DNA of 64,000 nucleotides, taken from contig CAWJTV010000014.1 of NCBI GenBank assembly GCA_963845755.1, positions 1 to 64,000 on the forward strand. Reading direction: 5' to 3'. This document shows positions 49,578 through 58,374 of this stretch, piece by piece; position 1 is the stretch's first letter, and each line of letters begins with the position of its first letter. The translations under genes and the position numbers were made by a program. The notes below the pieces were generated by a model. The model worked only from the letters and a program-made list of their open reading frames with translations. It was not told the origin of the DNA and ran no database searches. The stretch comes from an uncultured Planctomycetota bacterium (GTDB lineage Bacteria > Planctomycetota > Planctomycetia > Isosphaerales > Isosphaeraceae).

Positions 49578-49688
49578 TTCTTCCGGCACCCGGTCTGGGT
49601 GCGGGGTCTGTTGTCGATGTGCGCCTTGGACCTTCTTCCGGGCACCCGGTCTGGGTGCGGGGTCTGTTGTCGATGTGCGCCTTGGACC
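49578..49688 (+). repeat. Tandem duplication (55 + 56 bp) covering the protease translation start
   Basis: ttcttccg(g)gcacccggtctgggtgcggggtctgttgtcgatgtgcgccttggacc occurs twice, differing by one G. Confidence 0.92.
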
Positions 49689-50542
49689 TTGTCAAACTCA
49701 CGGATTTAATGGAACGCAGTCGCGGCAACGCGGGAACGACAGTCGGTCTCATTGATGGACCAGTCGCCGTGGACCATCCCGACCTCGCAGCGGCGATTGT
49801 CCGAGAGATCCCCGGGCGCCTGAGTGGACGCTGCGTCCGCTCCGACAGCGTCGCCTGCGGGCACGGGACCTTCGTGGCCGGGGTCTTATCTGGCAAGAGG
49901 GGGGCGCGGCGCCCGCCATCTGTCCCGGTTGCACCCTGCTGGTTCGCCCGATCTTTGCGGAGACCGGTTCCGGGGACGGGTCACTGCCCAATGCGACATC
50001 CCAGGAACTCGCGGCGGCGATCATCGACTGCGTCGAACGCGGGGGTCCATGTGGTCAACCTGAGCCTCGCCTTGGCCCGACCCTCGGCCCCGGGGATTCG
50101 GGAACTGGACGAGGCGATTGATTACGCCCTTCGTCGTGGTGTACTCGTCGTGGCGGCGGCGGGGAATCAGGGTGCCGTGGGCAGTTCGACCATCACGCGG
50201 CACCCGTGGGTGATCCCCGTGGCGGCTTGCGACCTCCGTGGGCGGCCGACTCCGGAATCGAACCTGGGGAGTTCCATCGGGACTCGCGGGCTGAGAGCAC
50301 CGGGCGAGGACATTACCAGTCTCGGGGCGGCCGGTCCGCCGTTCCGATCAGGGGGGACCAGCGTCGCGGCAGCGTTCGTGACCGGTGCCGTCGCTCTCTT
50401 GTGGTCGGAATACCCCGCCGCAACCGCGGCCCAAATCAAGCTCGCCGTCACCGGGTCCGGGGCGCCCAGGCGGGCGACGGTCGTCCCGAGCCTTCTGAAC
50501 GCCTGGGCGGCGTATCAAGCCATGTCGGAGCTTTCCCTCTAA
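49673..50542 (+). CDS. Stand-alone S8 subtilisin-like protease resembling the PatA/PatG protease domain (compensating indels near 49905 and 50036)
   Basis: Triad LIDGP, HGTFVAG, GGTSVAA; oxyanion AAAGN; an alternative frame at 49906-50036 restores AICPGCTLLVRPIF...ELAAAIIDC; no signal peptide. Confidence 0.88.
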   Translation: MCALDLVKLTDLMERSRGNAGTTVGLIDGPVAVDHPDLAAAIVREIPGRLSGRCVRSDSVACGHGTFVAGVLSGKRGARRPPSVPVAPCWFARSLRRPVPGTGHCPMRHPRNSRRRSSTASNAGVHVVNLSLALARPSAPGIRELDEAIDYALRRGVLVVAAAGNQGAVGSSTITRHPWVIPVAACDLRGRPTPESNLGSSIGTRGLRAPGEDITSLGAAGPPFRSGGTSVAAAFVTGAVALLWSEYPAATAAQIKLAVTGSGAPRRATVVPSLLNAWAAYQAMSELSL

Positions 50543-50557
50543 CGTAGGAGGACTGCG

Positions 50558-51508
50558 ATGGAGCAGACAGATGTCGTTGGAGCAGGGCGCGATCATCCCA
50601 TACACGATGGCGATGCGTCAGCACTTGGACCTGTCTTGCCCGCGGGCACCGGGGCAACGGCCGTCCCTCAGTCGGCGGGCGGCAAGTGCGGCTGCGGATG
50701 CACGGGGGGTGCCAAATCCGAGGGCGAAGCCGCGGTGAATTATTCTTTTGTCTATGCGTTGGGTCGGGTCGATCCGCGGTTCCCGTCACCGGGTGTGGAG
50801 AAGGAGTTCACTCAGGCCACAGGTCGGTCCGGGACAGCCGGACTGTCCGACCGCCAGGCTCTTCATGCGGTACTCTCAAAGCGGGAGAACCTCTACCTGG
50901 CCCGGCAACTCTGCTGGGTGCTCTCCATCGGGAGCGTGGAGACGTACATCCTCCGGCCGGGCCATCCGGGCGACTTCCACCTGTTGATCGAGGCGGTCCG
51001 CCCGTCGCCACGCCCCACCGACATTGACGTCGTCATCGGCGTGCGCGGGCCGATCGCCCCGCCACAGGCATGCAACGGGCTGATGGTCCCTGTCGTCGCG
51101 TTCGACCAGATATACTCTTTCGACGTGGACTCTCTGATCGGGTCGATCCCCCCGCCGCAGGGACAAGACGCGCAGAAATTCCGGCCGATGGCGGAAGAGG
51201 TCTTCTGGAGGATCATGCAACTGGCCGACAACGCCGGCGCGATGGACGAACACCGCGCGCTGAATTACCTGGCCGTCCGCTACGACGCCATTTACGCCAA
51301 GGCAGCCGAGTACTATGGACAGAACTACGCCTTGACGGCCGTGGACGTGCTGCCGTCGCGCCTGAGCGGCACGCGCAATCTGGTCAACGTGATCTTCTCA
51401 TTCGCCAACCGCGCGACCGACTTCACCGAGAAGGTCTTCGTCCGGGTGGACGTGACAGAGCCGTTCCCGTTCTTGGTCACCAAGCTGTCTCCGTATTACG
51501 ACCATTGA
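50558..51508 (+). CDS. PatA/PatG C-terminal-domain (cyanobactin protease DUF) protein
   Basis: VYALG, N.YLARQLCWVL.I...ETYIL.P, CNGL.VP.V.FDQIYSF, DNAG..DEHRALNYLAVRY..IY, SRLSG.R, F.RVDVTE.FPFLVTKLSPYYD; AGGAGG RBS. Confidence 0.88.
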   Translation: MEQTDVVGAGRDHPIHDGDASALGPVLPAGTGATAVPQSAGGKCGCGCTGGAKSEGEAAVNYSFVYALGRVDPRFPSPGVEKEFTQATGRSGTAGLSDRQALHAVLSKRENLYLARQLCWVLSIGSVETYILRPGHPGDFHLLIEAVRPSPRPTDIDVVIGVRGPIAPPQACNGLMVPVVAFDQIYSFDVDSLIGSIPPPQGQDAQKFRPMAEEVFWRIMQLADNAGAMDEHRALNYLAVRYDAIYAKAAEYYGQNYALTAVDVLPSRLSGTRNLVNVIFSFANRATDFTEKVFVRVDVTEPFPFLVTKLSPYYDH

Positions 51509-51665
51509 ACGATCTCCCGTTTCGCATGGTTGCCCGTTCGCATCGGGACTTCTCGTTCGGGTTTCGGATCGAGGGCCAGGAAAACGTCGGGCGTCGGAAC
51601 GAATACCCTTCCACGGGAACTTTGCGCCGAGCCTCAAGTTCCGCAATACTACTAAGGATTACGAG

Positions 51666-51893
51666 ATGAACATGCCTGGGTTTTCTGCGGATGCATCGTT
51701 GTTCAGAGCACGCACGGACTTCCGTGCGAGCGACGCCATGCAGGGCGCGGGCGGCTCCCACCGCAGTTCCGACGCAGTGGTTCCGTCCTTCGGCATCAAT
51801 CCGTTATGTCGTGCCTGGGAGGCGTGTTGTCTCCGCACAGGTAGTGCCTACTGCTGCAATCACTATTACGGCCTCTGCGTCAGCCCGGTTTGA
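51666..51893 (+). CDS. Putative precursor peptide 1 (75 aa, 6-Cys core)
   Basis: Leader MNMPGFSADASL...F19, AVVPS junction, core FGINPLCRAWEACCLRTGSAYCCNHYYGLCVSPV; AAGGA upstream. Confidence 0.8.
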   Translation: MNMPGFSADASLFRARTDFRASDAMQGAGGSHRSSDAVVPSFGINPLCRAWEACCLRTGSAYCCNHYYGLCVSPV

Positions 51894-51941
51894 ACTTCCG
51901 TGAAACCGGACGCGGTCGGTCGGCCATTGGAGGTGAGTACC

Positions 51942-52157
51942 ATGAGACTGCCAGGGTTCACCGCGGTCACAGCGCTCGAGAGGACCGGAACGTCTTACCG
52001 GGAGGAATTAAACCTCGTCCAAGCCGGGGGGGCCGTGCTGCCCGCCACCCTCCCTGGCTGCTACGCCCGTTGCCTGGCGTCTGCCGGAGACGATCCTTTC
52101 GCCAACTACAACTGCCGGTGCATCTGTTACGGGCCGCCCCACTGCCATCTCATGTGA
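51942..52157 (+). CDS. Putative precursor peptide 2 (71 aa, 6-Cys core)
   Basis: GGAGGTG RBS; leader MRLPGFTAVTAL...Y19, AVLPA junction, core TLPGCYARCLASAGDDPFANYNCRCICYGPPHCHLM. Confidence 0.82.
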   Translation: MRLPGFTAVTALERTGTSYREELNLVQAGGAVLPATLPGCYARCLASAGDDPFANYNCRCICYGPPHCHLM

Positions 52158-52186
52158 GGGTCGGTGGGAGCAACGTCGGTTCATCG

Positions 52187-52217
52187 TGACTCCGACGCCG
52201 AGGGGGCGTCGGAGTCA
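52187..52217. other. Perfect 13-bp intergenic stem-loop between peptide genes 2 and 3
   Basis: tgactccgacgcc-gaggg-ggcgtcggagtca; no U-tract. Confidence 0.7.
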
Positions 52218-52256
52218 TCACACTGACAGATCATTGTGAGAAAAGGATCGTGAACG

Positions 52257-52520
52257 ATGAGAATGCCGGGACTGACCGCACGGGCCTCGCTCGACACGCC
52301 AGGCGATCGCTACCAAAGCGGCGGGGGTCACAACCCCCTCTTACGAATCCTCGACCCGCATTCGATTCAGCCCGCATTCTCATGCGGCCCGTGTACATGC
52401 AACCGGTTTTGCAGTACACGACCTCCTTACGCTTGCTACTATACCAATTGTCAGCAGCTCTGTTTCGTCCCTCCCGCCAACCTCATTACCGTGCCTTGCT
52501 CGCCTCCCTGGATGCGGTGA
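52257..52520 (+). CDS. Putative precursor peptide 3 (87 aa, 8-Cys core)
   Basis: AAAGGA upstream; leader MRMPGLTARASL...Y19, SIQPA junction, core FSCGPCTCNRFC...VPCSPPWMR. Confidence 0.8.
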   Translation: MRMPGLTARASLDTPGDRYQSGGGHNPLLRILDPHSIQPAFSCGPCTCNRFCSTRPPYACYYTNCQQLCFVPPANLITVPCSPPWMR

Positions 52521-52621
52521 AAGGAGGCGGAACGGAATGCCGCGACGTTAGTGCACAAACCCCGTCATCTGAACACGCTGTAGCATCGACTCATGGTCCC
52601 AGATTGGTAATGCTCTCTGGT

Positions 52622-52680
52622 GGAGGGTGGGTGCAACCCACCATAACCCCAGACCGGATAGTGGGTTGCACCCACCTTAC
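52622..52680. repeat. REP-like palindromic doublet
   Basis: ggagggtgggtgcaacccac ... gtgggttgcacccaccttac; each arm is itself a short palindrome. Confidence 0.65.
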
Positions 52681-53083
52681 AGATCGACTGAAAACGAGCC
52701 TCACCAATCTCGGCCCATGACCATGAGCCACCCCTTTTTCCCCCTCTCGCCACGGCCAACGGCAAGCCCTGGCCGCGACACTTCGGGAACATCCCGGCCG
52801 GTTGCCGTAATCCGAGCTCCCGGCCCTGTCCGCAGTCTCCCGACATAAATTTTTTTCGTTTTTTTTCATGTCGTGGTTGTGGCAAGAGTTGCGACGAAGA
52901 AAACGCCCAGCCACGCCGTAGGTGCATTAACGAAATCCCCAAGTTGAGGCATCCTGATAGATAGGTGACGTTGGGCGAAGCCATCCGCGACTTTCAGTCG
53001 GCCAAATGGCACCGCCCCCGTCCGAAGCCCAGTCCTCGCCATCGGAGTTCCCTCGGTCGATCCCTGTCACTTCCTCGCTCTTC

Positions 53084-53272
53084 GAAATCGCGCGAACGAA
53101 CCCACCAACCTCCCGATTGAAAAGCCGCGCCAACGAAGCCACGATTGTAGCGAATATATCGATTATGCGGGTCAGCCTCGACCTCGGCACCGGAATCGCG
53201 CGAACGAAGCCAAGTTGACGCGGCGGGAAGCCGCGAACGAAGCCACGATTGTAGGGAATATACCGATTGTGC
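53084..53272 (+). repeat. Degenerate direct repeat with four aacgaa(g/c)cca cores
   Basis: Two ~82-bp units (53084-53168, 53192-53272), each with atcgcgcgaacgaa and aacgaagccacgattgtag.gaatata.cgatt.tgc. Confidence 0.75.
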
Positions 53273-53581
53273 CGACTGAGCCGCCGGCGGACGCTGTCCC
53301 CTCGTCGACAAGGTTACGAGATCACGAGATCGCGATCAGGCCGGGAATTACGGTATCGCGGGTCAAGCCAATCCTGCCGTTTGCCCAGGGCGATCCGAGC
53401 GGTCAACGGTACTCCATGCAGTTTGCACAGACCCTTGAGACGTCCAGCCCTGCCGGAAGTCCTCTCGAAGATCGTGGTTGGGGATTCCCTCCCGGGGCGT
53501 TACAATGCGTCTCGATCCGGAAGCGATATCAAAACCAGGTCATGAGGACTCGCCCGGGGTCGTCAACGAATGAGGTCAGGA

Positions 53582-54214
53582 ATGAGCGGCGAGGAAGACG
53601 GTTCGGTCACGTGCTGGCTTGGGAATCTCCGGGAAGGCGATCTCGCGGCGGCCCAGCCGCTGTGGGAGCGTTATTTTTCCCGGCTGGTCGTCGTGGCACG
53701 CGGGAAGTTGAAGCGCCTGCGGCGGACGACGGCCGGCGAGGATGAGGAAGACGCCGCACTCAGCGCGTTCAACAGCTTCTGCGACGGAGCGGCGCGAGGG
53801 CGGTTCCCCCAGTTGGCCGACCGCGATGACCTGTGGCGCTTGCTGGTCGTGATCACGGCGCGGAAGGCCATGGCGCAGGCGCAACGAGAAGGGCGGAAGA
53901 AACGCGGGGGCGGTCGCGTCGTGGACGAGGCGGCCCTCTTCGGTCCGGGCGCCGGCGACGACGGGTCGATGGCGGGCCTGGAGCGGATCGCCGGCGATGG
54001 GCCGACACCCGAGTTCGCCGCCATGATGGCCGAGGAGTGCCAGCGGCTTCTCGACTCGCTCGATGACGATGCCCTCCGGCAGGTCGCCCTCAGCCGGATG
54101 GAGGGCTATACCAACGACGAGATCGCCGACCAGCTCGGCTGCGCCCGCCGGACGATCGCACGCCGTCTGGACCTGATCCGCAAGACCTGGATGTCGGTCG
54201 TCGAGGTGAATTGA
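53582..54214 (+). CDS. Planctomycete ECF-type sigma factor
   Basis: GSVT.WL..L..GD..AA..LWERYF.RL, DEEDAALSAF.SF, DLWRLL..IT.RK, EGYTN.EIA..LGC..RTI.RRL. Confidence 0.92.
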   Translation: MSGEEDGSVTCWLGNLREGDLAAAQPLWERYFSRLVVVARGKLKRLRRTTAGEDEEDAALSAFNSFCDGAARGRFPQLADRDDLWRLLVVITARKAMAQAQREGRKKRGGGRVVDEAALFGPGAGDDGSMAGLERIAGDGPTPEFAAMMAEECQRLLDSLDDDALRQVALSRMEGYTNDEIADQLGCARRTIARRLDLIRKTWMSVVEVN

Positions 54215-57454: not shown

Positions 57455-58374
57455 TCATTTCGGTGTGATCTCTTCCGTCTGACATTCAGTGAAGTCCACC
57501 CCGGGCTCGCCCTGATCCAATGCCTCGTCGAACGCCCGCGCGATGTCCTCGTAGAGGTGCGGCTGGTTCTCCTTGACCGCGAGCGCGTAATGGCCACCCC
57601 CGTCGATGATCTTGGCGGCGATGTCTTTCTGACAACCCATGGCGTCGATGGTCACCACGGCCCCGTTGAGGTCCAGCATCGCGAGCAAGTCGGGAATGGC
57701 CGTAATTTCGTTGGATTTGGCGTCGGTGGCCACTTGCCCCAAGGTCAAATGGTTCACGACCGCCCAGGCGCTGACGACATGCAGGGCCGAGCGGCCGACG
57801 GTGCGCCGCGCCGCGCCGCGTTGGGCCTTACCGTCGATGGCGATCGGCGTCAGCTCGGGCGAATCGGTGGCGACGGGGGTCAATCCCGTTCGCTCCATCA
57901 GCGCCGTCATCCAGGAGGAGAAGCCCTTCTGAAAGGCCAGCGGGTCGAGCAGGCAGAAGACCCGTCGAAAGGTGTCGTGCGAGGGGATGCCGCCGGGCAA
58001 TTCGAGGAAGGTCTCGAGCCAGTCGCTCTTGGAGTGGGCATAATCGGCGATCTGCACCCAGTTGTCGGCGCCGCAGAACACGGCGAGGGTGGCGATGAAA
58101 ATGATCTCATCGAGTCGGTGGATTCGCCCCTGTTCGCGGCGGGGATCGGGCAAGTCGGCGAAATGATCGAGGAGTGAGATCGGGTCTTGGGCGGGAGTAG
58201 CGGAGGCCGAATCCGAGCTGACGGTCATGGTGTGGACGTCCCTGAAAAGATCGAGTTATCCTGGCGATCGATGGTACAAAAGACGTCCGTTTCCCGACCA
58301 GCCGGACTGTAGGATCGAGGCGAGATGCTCTTTCCCAGAACACTCAGATATCCCAGGCTGGTGCGTAAGCCCTG
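57455..58374 (-). mobile_element. ISAs1-family element, 3'-truncated (transposase 57455..58228)
   Basis: HF..LPDPR, GIPSHDTF.RVF, IAIDGK, KSNEITAIP, VTIDAMGCQK, VKENQ; CAGGGCTTACGCACC candidate left end at 58374; C-terminal third and right end missing. Confidence 0.88.

Follow-up and report, generated by a model that had tools for sequence, protein, structure and literature searches.

The window, a 64,000-nt stretch from the genome assembly of an uncultured planctomycete of the family Isosphaeraceae, carries a cassette of five open reading frames (ORFs), all on the forward strand and all present in the ORF list of the window. The first gene (49673..50542, +) encodes a stand-alone PatA-type S8 serine protease of about 289 aa (Pfam Peptidase_S8, 5e-21), and the second (50558..51508, +) a stand-alone DUF protein of 316 aa, which contains both PatG_D (1.6e-28) and PatG_C (1.4e-30) above the Pfam cut-offs. 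The S8 gene stops at 50542 and the DUF gene begins at 50558; the two are separate genes with a 15-nt gap between them. Three small genes follow. Precursor 1 (51666..51893, +; 75 aa) has a 41-aa leader ending in V-V-P-S and a 34-aa core with 6 Cys, precursor 2 (51942..52157, +; 71 aa) a 35-aa leader ending in V-L-P-A and a 36-aa core with 6 Cys, and precursor 3 (52257..52520, +; 87 aa) a 40-aa leader ending in I-Q-P-A and a 47-aa core with 8 Cys. A sequence-only reading of the locus had described an S8 protease, a separate PatG C-terminal-domain protein and three co-oriented small genes, and the ORF and Pfam analyses recovered all of these elements, with core lengths and Cys counts as claimed. 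As it had also proposed, each peptide gene has its own ribosome-binding site (an SD-like site 6–9 nt upstream), the peptides align at their N-termini (MNMPGF, MRLPGF and MRMPGL) and position 19 is aromatic (F/Y) in all three. Between precursor genes 2 and 3 lies a perfect 14-bp hairpin (52186..52218, +; z -3.36, with 0 of 200 shuffles folding equally well), which has no T-run 3' of it and occurs only once in the genome. At the upstream end, a repeat search identified a perfect 50-nt direct repeat (100% identity, no strand assigned) in two copies spaced by 56 nt (49585-49634 and 49641-49690). The repeat spans the likely S8 start, with ATG 49673 duplicated as ATG 49617; genome-wide it exists in these two copies only, and either a genuine duplication or an error of assembly may account for it. 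A DDE transposase gene (57455..58228) is located 5 kb from the cassette.

The small genes belong to a large precursor family. A leader HMM of 24 positions, built from other genomes only, was searched against the six-frame translation of the 14.27-Mb assembly and detected all three window precursors (E 1.8e-6, 9.1e-3 and 7.5e-3 for precursors 1, 2 and 3, respectively). Only four other matches in the assembly reached E<0.05, two of them adjoining PatG_C genes, and the top own-genome matches adjoin PatG_C genes on C14, C31 and C36. The recovery of the three window peptides is far beyond chance. Across the family, the leader is about 37 aa long and follows the pattern M-x-x-P-G-F-T-A-E-A-S-L-Y ... 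Y ... V-x-P-Q/A/S. The initial estimate of a leader of about 20 aa thus has to be corrected, the shared leader of the window peptides really being 35–41 aa long and ending in V/I-x-P-(S/A). Coding conservation of the small ORFs is evident from at least 3,240 representative clusters (50% identity) that match the precursor family at E<=1e-3. Spurious ORFs are plentiful in high-GC DNA, and on this ground the three small ORFs might be taken for chance products of GC-rich sequence; the probability of this is negligible, and we rejected the idea on the basis of the independent leader HMM matches, the SD-like sites, the even Cys numbers and the 3,240-cluster family.

The distribution of Cys residues along the precursors is highly uneven. 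Cys and parity statistics were calculated for the 104 of 151 precursors carrying a junction motif, the remaining 47 having no recognisable junction. In these 104 proteins, Cys occupies 8 of 3,796 leader residues vs 683 of 5,612 core residues, and the core Cys count is even in 98 cases, odd in five and zero in one, six being the commonest number. All Cys residues of the window peptides (6, 6 and 8) are likewise inside the cores. Even core Cys numbers together with nearly Cys-free leaders support disulfides, and the pattern fits a pairing of the core Cys residues. The spacing of Cys in the cores is hypervariable, and conservation drops from up to 4.3 bits at the N-terminus to 0.2–0.4 bits at the C-terminal positions. 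The last eight positions fall in this low range, in agreement with the earlier remark that no follower is visible. The window cores had no significant relative among the 151 precursors; the core of precursor 2 is weakly similar (E 0.063) to a precursor from locus L015 of a Gemmataceae MAG, and one 198-aa core of the family matches Stig1/MXAN_6577-like Cys-rich repeats. Pfam and NCBIfam (5 + 10 proteins) contained no model for the precursors, and the ESM Atlas returned only clusters called 'hypothetical protein'. Judging from their architecture, the peptides are putative RiPP-like leader-core precursors handled by dedicated enzymes. Cys-rich cores of this kind might instead serve as intracellular metal-binding peptides (metallothionein- or metallophore-like) with unpaired Cys, in keeping with processing proteins that look cytoplasmic and with the lack of a conserved exporter. 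Such a function would leave the even Cys number in 98 of 104 cores unexplained, and is also disfavoured by the hypervariable Cys spacing and the prevalence of six Cys, making it a quite improbable account of the family.

The same set of genes recurs in many genomes. In a DUF-anchored set of 79 genome loci, from many phyla plus one archaeon, a PatA-like S8 gene (about 285 aa) is present on the same strand in 70 loci, and shared-leader precursors, one to eight per locus, in 76. A conserved 48–52-aa protein with a C-G-G-C motif is encoded between the S8 and DUF genes in 54 of the 79. Leader ORFs number three per locus in the median and lie on the DUF strand in 215 of 220 cases. The window matches this pattern, in that its S8 gene immediately precedes a stand-alone DUF gene and is read in the same direction. 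The split of the two domains had been viewed as a peculiarity of the locus; separate S8 and DUF genes turned out to be the norm for the subfamily. A leader-anchored metagenome scan, performed with a narrower precursor alignment, found the DUF gene in 44 of 46 loci with at least 1.2 kb of upstream sequence and the S8 gene in 22 of 23 loci with at least 3 kb. Leaders are therefore not independent of the protease-DUF pair, whether loci are anchored on the DUF (76/79) or on the leader (44/46). No further ORF cluster was common to six or more of the 79 loci, and a conserved exporter, immunity gene or thiol oxidase was detected neither in the cassette across these loci nor among the 17 ORFs neighbouring the window copy. 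The carriers are soil, freshwater, nitrifying or methanotrophic organisms and include cultivable Nitrosospira, Methylobacter and Edaphobacter strains. No description of the cassette was found in the full-text literature searched, which left out most subscription journals, and the leader string PGFTAE was likewise absent from it. We consider it likely that the cassette represents a large, horizontally spread and unnamed family related to the cyanobactin machinery.

The host genome itself contains several cassette parts: C31 carries a complete paralogous cassette, C33 has orphan precursors and C36 a truncated DUF gene. The C31 cassette includes the 50-aa gene (E 1e-28). In the window, the S8 and DUF genes are separated by only 15 nt, and no HMM match to the 50-aa protein was found on C14. 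The closest relative, the Gemmataceae locus L015, is also devoid of this gene. Pfam and NCBIfam had no model for the 50-aa protein either, and ESM Atlas look-alikes at 0.90–0.91, some of them from phages, are leads only.

The S8 gene of the window shows irregularities of its own. Its Asp, His and Ser motifs are in frame, and about 48 codons (roughly 49899..50045) were readable only in another frame in a three-frame reading. The shifts occur at a G6 run (49899-49904) and a G5 run (50041-50045) and compensate exactly; the gene has the same length as three intact homologues, whose start aligns with 49673. The rpoB and rpoC genes of the same assembly change frame too, rpoC in an A-B-A pattern like that of S8, and because of this the out-of-frame S8 codons are probably an assembly error. 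The more specific idea that frame errors of this assembly are tied to homopolymers was dropped, since the junctions in rpoB and rpoC do not coincide with long runs. Four soil-metagenome contig sets contained short pieces identical to the locus (e.g. 50329-50593, 51434-51687 and 51721-51885). At the first shift site, X1 contig 1 matched at the edge only, with a 25-base piece containing 2 mismatches, and its diverged, same-length interior indicates that it comes from another organism; no piece spanning the second site was present in the four sets. Public sequencing runs containing the window stretch were not found, and none were listed for RNA.

Given the S8 frame shifts, the missing 50-aa gene and the transposase 5 kb away, the window copy could be decaying. 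Taken to its end, this would make the locus a non-functional remnant with an S8 pseudogene and a lost 50-aa gene, its peptides being matured at most in trans via C31. The 56-nt-spaced duplication over the S8 start, the presence of the 50-aa gene in C31, the truncated DUF gene at C36 and the orphan precursors at C33 are in line with such a history. However, assembly indel errors are the simpler explanation given that rpoB and rpoC are also frame-shifted, and the S8 shifts, apart from sitting at G runs, cancel each other exactly. Moreover, neither the DUF gene nor any of the three precursors is damaged, and L015 lacks the 50-aa gene as well. We therefore regard a dead remnant as unlikely.

With respect to its ancestry, the protease is of PatA type. 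Among proteins of solved structure, the intact own-genome S8 paralogue matches the PatA/PagA proteases best (4h6v, 3zxx, 3zxy and 4h6w; ~1e-30), vs 1e-14 for subtilisin BPN' and 2.6e-11 for the PatG macrocyclase. The window S8 protein scored 78 bits against the TIGR03895 cut-off of 421, a low value because this model covers protease plus DUF. Among the PADLOC defence models, the S8 protein had only generic subtilase/IetS similarity, and the DUF protein, the 50-aa protein and the precursors had no match. In the cyanobactin pathway, the leader protease PatA and the macrocyclase PatG, both with a C-terminal DUF, process PatE precursors with short cores. The cassette resembles this system in that its S8 type is nearest to PatA/PagA (as judged via the intact paralogue), its second protein is distantly homologous to the PatG DUF, and its precursors consist of a leader followed by a hypervariable core; neither system encodes an exporter. 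In contrast to cyanobactin loci, protease and DUF are separate genes in most members, macrocyclase (the window cassette has one S8), YcaO and follower are lacking, the cores are 25–100+ aa long, Cys-rich and of even Cys number, the leaders belong to another family, a 50-aa protein comes in addition, and the cassettes are spread over many phyla plus one archaeon. No YcaO domain occurs among the 17 ORFs around the cassette, and the absence of YcaO noted from sequence held for the whole assembly (87.9% complete), where PF02624 had no match. The PatA-like protease and the PatG_D/PatG_C domains would be expected of a canonical cyanobactin pathway making small N-to-C macrocycles. Yet a locus without YcaO in the assembly, with a single S8 nearer to PatA than to the macrocyclase, with cores of 34–47 aa and with no conserved follower can hardly be one.

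No part of the cassette is better conserved than the DUF, which has about 60% identity between phyla, many invariant polar residues and conserved Cys. At least 7,576 relatives of about 315 aa were obtained at E<=1e-5 (8,000 candidates scored), the 119 other proteins listed being 59–81% identical to the query, and a scan of genome contigs yielded 363 relatives from many phyla and one archaeon. In viral contigs (IMG/VR), no DUF relative was found. The DUF profile A1 matches PatG-DUF (4uvq, E 1.2e-4), and the AF2 model of the DUF aligns with 4uvq_A at Z 14.7 over 232 residues and 16% identity; after 4uvq, the model gives only OB-like matches at Z ~5. Direct reading indicated no signal peptide in the window DUF or the S8 protein. 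The DUF starts with a disordered N-terminal stretch of 58 aa harbouring an A-V-P-Q and then a C-G-C-G-C motif. In the family, (I/L/V)-x-P-Q followed by C-x(1,2)-C occurs in 51 of 66 DUF N-termini, and plain [VIL]-x-P-Q in 54 of 66 vs a mean of 2.6 in shuffles. This V-x-P-Q motif type is the same as that of the precursor junction, and it is also found in the linker of fused S8-DUF forms. An AF2 model of one natural fusion (P0319, alignment A4) has both domains confidently modelled, with pLDDT <50 in the linker (290-348). Further fusions join the DUF body to catalytic domains of other kinds, namely Fido, DUF676 esterase and glycosyltransferase, and these domain combinations fit a role of the DUF as an adaptor. 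When precursor 1 (alignment A2) and the window DUF (alignment A1) were submitted together to complex prediction, run without controls, the score was 0.00 (mark 0.32). In the sections of PMC4259220 considered here, neither ITC nor NMR detected any binding of the cyanobactin PatG-DUF to linear PatE.

The strong conservation of the DUF, with its invariant polar residues, conserved Cys and N-terminal C-x-C, would also be expected of a modifying enzyme that acts alone or with the 50-aa C-G-G-C protein to yield further modified products, and the cassette has no other enzyme that could do so. On the other hand, no similarity to an enzyme fold stands out, the only matches after 4uvq being OB-like, and the hypervariable cores offer no conserved target residue besides Cys. 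We thus rate a modifying activity of the DUF as rather improbable.

Overall, the sequence-only reading of the locus is supported, and the window locus is one copy of a widespread, unnamed cassette that is probably a factory of disulfide-bonded mini-proteins. The analysis establishes gene content and order, co-occurrence, leader/core architecture and Cys parity, while the cleavage site, the disulfides, the role of the DUF, export and biological activity are inferred. In the likely scenario, a split cassette makes the mini-proteins via shared-leader processing, its canonical set comprising a cytoplasmic PatA-type S8 of about 285 aa, the 48–52-aa C-G-G-C protein, a DUF of about 315 aa and one to eight precursors. 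The S8 protease would recognise the shared leader and cut at or just after V-x-P-(Q/A/S), and the released linear cores (34, 36 and 47 aa in the window) should each adopt a mini-protein fold, held by 3, 3 and 4 disulfides, respectively. The DUF would be an obligatory non-catalytic partner, either as docking/recognition module or as folding helper, and one processing set would serve many unrelated cores. Against this scenario stand the lack of signal peptides in S8 and DUF, the lack of a conserved exporter, immunity gene or thiol oxidase, the failure of PatG-DUF to bind linear PatE, the out-of-frame S8 codons and missing 50-aa gene of the window copy, and the 47 of 151 precursors without junction motif. 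A bolder version, which we put forward only tentatively and consider doubtful, is that the cassette is a general launcher of bacterial and archaeal disulfide-rich mini-proteins in conotoxin or defensin style. The cyanobactin DUF might then be a substrate-docking or oxidative-folding module working with the 50-aa C-G-G-C protein, and tethered to or trimmed by the protease via the substrate-like (I/L/V)-x-P-Q ... C-x-C segment.

If the mini-protein scenario holds, a single simple processing set of two or three proteins serves thousands of distinct, genetically encoded Cys-framework peptides, and this would provide a new source of stable mini-protein scaffolds and a portable leader-plus-protease system to make them. 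With the cassette, the function of the PatA/PatG DUF would also become tractable to study; this domain is conserved in characterised cyanobactin pathways, and the considered sections of PMC4259220 report no detected ligand for it. The overall design is reminiscent of other peptide families. Animal conopeptides and defensins, as well as systems in which one enzyme acts on many substrates, such as the prochlorosins, combine a conserved pro- or leader region with hypervariable cores in several paralogues. By analogy, the cassette would likewise place Cys-framework cores behind a conserved leader, with several paralogues per locus, although the proteins are unrelated and processing here would take place in the prokaryotic cytoplasm.

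Closer comparisons are offered by proteins in which the two domains form one chain. Within the subfamily, S8-DUF fusions such as P0319 and P0321 (about 600 aa) have a DUF part 45–70% identical to the window DUF and carry the V-x-P-Q ... C-x-C motif in their linker. Unlike the split form, they are single chains and much rarer, with at least 92 longer forms vs at least 7,500 stand-alone DUF proteins among the matches listed. Fused PatA homologues also occur in the same bacterial family, on C38 of the host genome and at locus L012 of genome G015 (655 aa). In both, a small Cys-rich ORF comes after the S8-DUF protein, again with V-Q-P-Q at its junction, whereas the DUF is of cyanobactin type and the leader is different. 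Copies of the fused PatA homologue in G000, G001 and G012 change frame.

The window locus comprises five ORFs, all on the + strand, in an assembly of 14.27 Mb (49 contigs, ~64% GC, 87.9% complete). An S8 protease ORF (49562/49673..50542; Pfam Peptidase_S8, 5e-21) is followed by the gene of a stand-alone homologue of the cyanobactin PatG C-terminal DUF, hereafter the DUF protein (50558..51508; PatG_D 1.6e-28, PatG_C 1.4e-30), and by three precursor genes, each with an SD-like sequence 6-9 nt 5' of its start. Precursor 1 (51666..51893) starts MNMPGF and has 6 Cys, a predicted leader of 41 aa and a predicted core of 34 aa; precursor 2 (51942..52157) starts MRLPGF, with 6 Cys and a predicted 35-aa leader and 36-aa core; and precursor 3 (52257..52520) starts MRMPGL, with 8 Cys and a predicted 40-aa leader and 47-aa core. 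Position 19 is aromatic in all three, and none matched a Pfam or NCBIfam model. The sequence-only reading had described this arrangement of an S8 gene, a separate PatG-domain gene and three co-oriented small genes, each with its own RBS, a shared N-terminus, the aromatic position 19 and 6, 6 or 8 Cys; every element was recovered, Pfam agreed on the domains, and an alignment with 47 family members, whose landmarks the window precursors show, predicted the same core lengths. Neighbouring genes encode DUF1570, TPR and FG-GAP/ASPIC proteins, an ECF sigma factor, a Ser/Thr kinase, an outer-membrane efflux protein, a DDE transposase and a sulfatase, a set typical for a planctomycete-like genome that includes neither a modifying enzyme nor a dedicated transporter. 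YcaO, not visible to the earlier reading either, was not found in the whole 87.9%-complete assembly.

The S8 gene, the DUF gene and the leader-sharing precursors form a linked cassette that recurs in many genomes. Our locus statistics cover the best 79 of 363 DUF relatives obtained in a one-genome-per-species scan. An S8 gene ~55% identical to that of the window lies on the same strand as the DUF gene in 70 of the 79 loci, in most of them directly upstream, and at least one leader-bearing small ORF is present in 76, the other three being short contigs. Leader hits number 220 (median 3, maximum 8 per locus), with 215 on the DUF strand. Between the S8 and DUF genes, 54/79 loci encode a conserved 48-52-aa protein with an M-R-L-P-G-F start and a C-G-G-C motif; its gene is missing from the window copy. 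Because no other ORF cluster (>=70 aa) was common to at least 6 of the 79 loci, the cassette is self-contained, with surroundings that differ from genome to genome. For a reverse test, metagenome contigs were scanned for the leader word [MIL]-P-G-F-T-A-E-A-S, giving at least 617 pattern matches, of which 359 were confirmed and the best 80 analysed. Where at least 1,200 nt preceded the first leader, a DUF homologue was found in 44/46 loci; with at least 3,000 nt, the DUF gene and the S8 gene were each found in 22/23; and with less than 1,200 nt, the DUF gene was found in 18/34. In these loci the distance from the DUF gene to the start of the first precursor is commonly 34-59 nt. The independence of leaders from S8/PatG_C genes that the sequence-only reading had set against its own proposal was thus not seen in these metagenome loci. 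One locus of a Candidatus Brocadia MAG (L057, 2504-6948) carries the 50-aa gene and the DUF gene twice each, in tandem. The ESM-Atlas clusters nearest to the 50-aa protein (e.g. L057:5758-5904) score 0.90-0.91 and include, as a lead only, 48-49-aa hypothetical proteins of tailed phages.

Across 151 precursors, conservation is strong at the N-terminus (up to 4.3 bits at positions 1-12) and position 19 is Tyr or Phe in 115. The last eight positions hold 0.2-0.4 bits, so the precursors lack a follower, as had been read from the window peptides. A V/I-x-P-(Q/A/S) junction motif lies 24-40 residues past P-G-F in 104/151 precursors, delimiting leaders and cores with median lengths of 37 and 45 aa, and in these 104 Cys accounts for 8 of 3,796 leader residues and 683 of 5,612 core residues. 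Of these cores, 98 have an even number of Cys, 5 an odd number and 1 none; for whole precursors (n=151) the respective numbers are 119, 24 and 8. Pairwise bonding, in its simplest form by disulfides, draws its main support from this parity. A profile of 50 precursors matched 3,240 representative clusters (50% identity level) among 1.84 billion at E<=1e-3, which provides the coding conservation of the small ORFs on which the earlier proposal had been made to depend. Certain core types are shared between phyla, one of them occurring, for example, in a leader-bearing orphan elsewhere in the same genome (contig C33), in a Methylococcaceae locus and in Methylobacter luteus; the window's own cores had no significant relatives among the 151 precursors. 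At another locus (L036:6649-7245), a family precursor has a 198-aa, 34-Cys core matching Stig1 (2.1e-10) and MXAN_6577-like Cys-rich repeats, so the leader can be joined to Cys-rich domains that already existed.

In the window S8 gene, the Asp, His and Ser motifs all lie in frame 0, and the segment from the His motif to the N-L-S motif can be recognised as S8 solely in another frame. One of the two shifts lies at a G6 run (49899-49904), the other at a G5 run (50041-50045), and neither site is covered by public reads. Three intact homologues align with the window S8 over an equal total length, and the closest begins at the position of the ATG at 49673, the start originally assigned. In the same assembly, rpoB is split over two frames and rpoC follows the order frame A, frame B, frame A (rpoB/rpoC sites at C34:79366-83015 and C34:567489-571586). 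Because these essential genes also change frame, the assembly carries indel errors, which are the simplest explanation for the S8 shifts too and may account for the 87.9% completeness as well. A homopolymer-specific error is not claimed as the cause, the rpoB/rpoC frame junctions not lying at long homopolymers. A perfect 50-nt direct repeat (49585-49690, 56-nt spacing), with just these two copies in the genome, overlaps the S8 start codon and could be either a real duplication or an assembly artefact. Positions 52621-52681, 3' of precursor 3, hold an 18-24-bp inverted repeat (RNA fold z -2.89) that looks like a REP-like palindromic element, since the genome has 14 occurrences of its 16-nt core. 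Two direct-repeat families at 53083-53272 (four copies of 22 nt; two copies of 41 nt with 90% identity and a spacing of 104 nt) closely precede the ECF sigma factor gene (53570..54214) and could represent a regulatory element.

The best solved matches of an intact S8 paralogue are the PatA/PagA N-terminal cyanobactin proteases (~1e-30), with subtilisins (1e-14) and the PatG macrocyclase (2.6e-11) well behind. By sequence, the DUF protein is only a distant relative of the solved PatG DUF, which single-sequence phmmer did not find and a DUF profile matched at E 1.2e-4. An AF2 model of the DUF protein, with a mean pLDDT of 70 and disorder in residues 1-58, matches 4uvq_A with Z 14.7 across 232 residues (16% identity); OB-like folds come next at Z ~5, within the tool's stated noise. 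For the PatG DUF, PMC4259220 reports a novel fold, with no binding of linear PatE by ITC or NMR. Longer DUF relatives (at least 92 proteins, 554-2000 aa) are mostly ~600-aa S8-DUF fusions; in a few, the DUF body stands behind a Fido/Fic, DUF676 serine-esterase or glycosyltransferase domain in place of S8 (P0353, P0385, P0382), a pattern that, from few sequences, would suit a docking module better than an enzyme. The motif (I/L/V)-x-P-Q, with C-x(1,2)-C within the next 1-6 residues, occurs in 51/66 disordered N-termini of split DUF proteins and in the linker of fused S8-DUF proteins; plain [VIL]-x-P-Q is present in 54/66 DUF N-termini, as compared to 2.6 on average and 7 at most across 200 shuffles. 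That the DUF N-terminus shares this P-Q motif with the precursor junction suggests that the S8 protease may also engage or trim the DUF protein. Beyond the architecture and linkage shown here, we infer a mechanism in which the PatA-like protease would cut the precursors at the junction, the DUF protein would act as a partner, and the released window cores would form 3, 3 and 4 disulfides. The processing proteins look cytoplasmic, and the cassette contains no exporter, immunity gene or oxidase.

At E<=1e-5, the DUF protein has at least 7,576 relatives (8,000 candidates scored). Among the matches listed, almost all are stand-alone PatG_D+PatG_C proteins of 257-332 aa, 59-81% identical to the query, from Gemmataceae, Methylobacter, Desulfobaccales, Thermodesulfobacteriota and Candidatus Methanoperedens; no relative was found in viral contigs. 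Hosts among the best 79 loci include Nitrosospira, Nitrosomonas, Nitrotoga, Methylobacter luteus, Edaphobacter modestus, many Acidobacteriota, several cyanobacteria, Brocadia, Chloroflexota, Verrucomicrobiae, Flavobacteriaceae, Spirochaetia, Actinomycetota, Nitrospirales, Entotheonellaceae and Methanoperedens. PatG_C is present in 3 of 40 related genomes, each time as the fused type, and the cassette was not found in the sole other genome of the same genus. Precursor-family members of cultured strains bear no annotation beyond hypothetical or uncharacterised protein, no Pfam, NCBIfam or PADLOC model was found for either the precursors or the 50-aa protein, and a full-text literature search, with most subscription journals outside its scope, found no description of the cassette.

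Within the window's genome, a leader HMM built from other genomes gave seven matches at E<0.05 and no more: the three window peptides, one each on contigs C31 and C36, both adjoining a PatG_C gene, and two adjacent ones on C33. The C31 match belongs to a complete paralogous cassette (C31:174992-177430; L009:6993-9431) encoding an S8 protein of 302 aa, the 50-aa protein (HMM E 1e-28, C-G-D-C motif), a 324-aa DUF protein and a precursor of 103 aa that contains 14 Cys and a poly-Pro stretch and is similar to cores of two acidobacterial loci (L027, L030). On C36 (419812-420554), a truncated DUF gene (195-aa open frame) precedes an 82-aa precursor with 8 Cys, and on C33 (209616-210030) neither an S8 nor a DUF gene lies near the two adjacent ORFs with a leader, one of which is a fragment; the leader-bearing ORFs of both contigs are orphans or remnants. 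The same bacterial family also has a second, cyanobactin-like fused S8-DUF gene (C38:57000-59600, equal to L008; L012:8272-10510; L013; L014), which is intact, with 655 aa, in one related genome (G015) and frame-shifted in the window's genome and two others (G001, G012). The small 6-Cys ORF that follows this fused gene has a different leader, yet a V-Q-P-Q junction.
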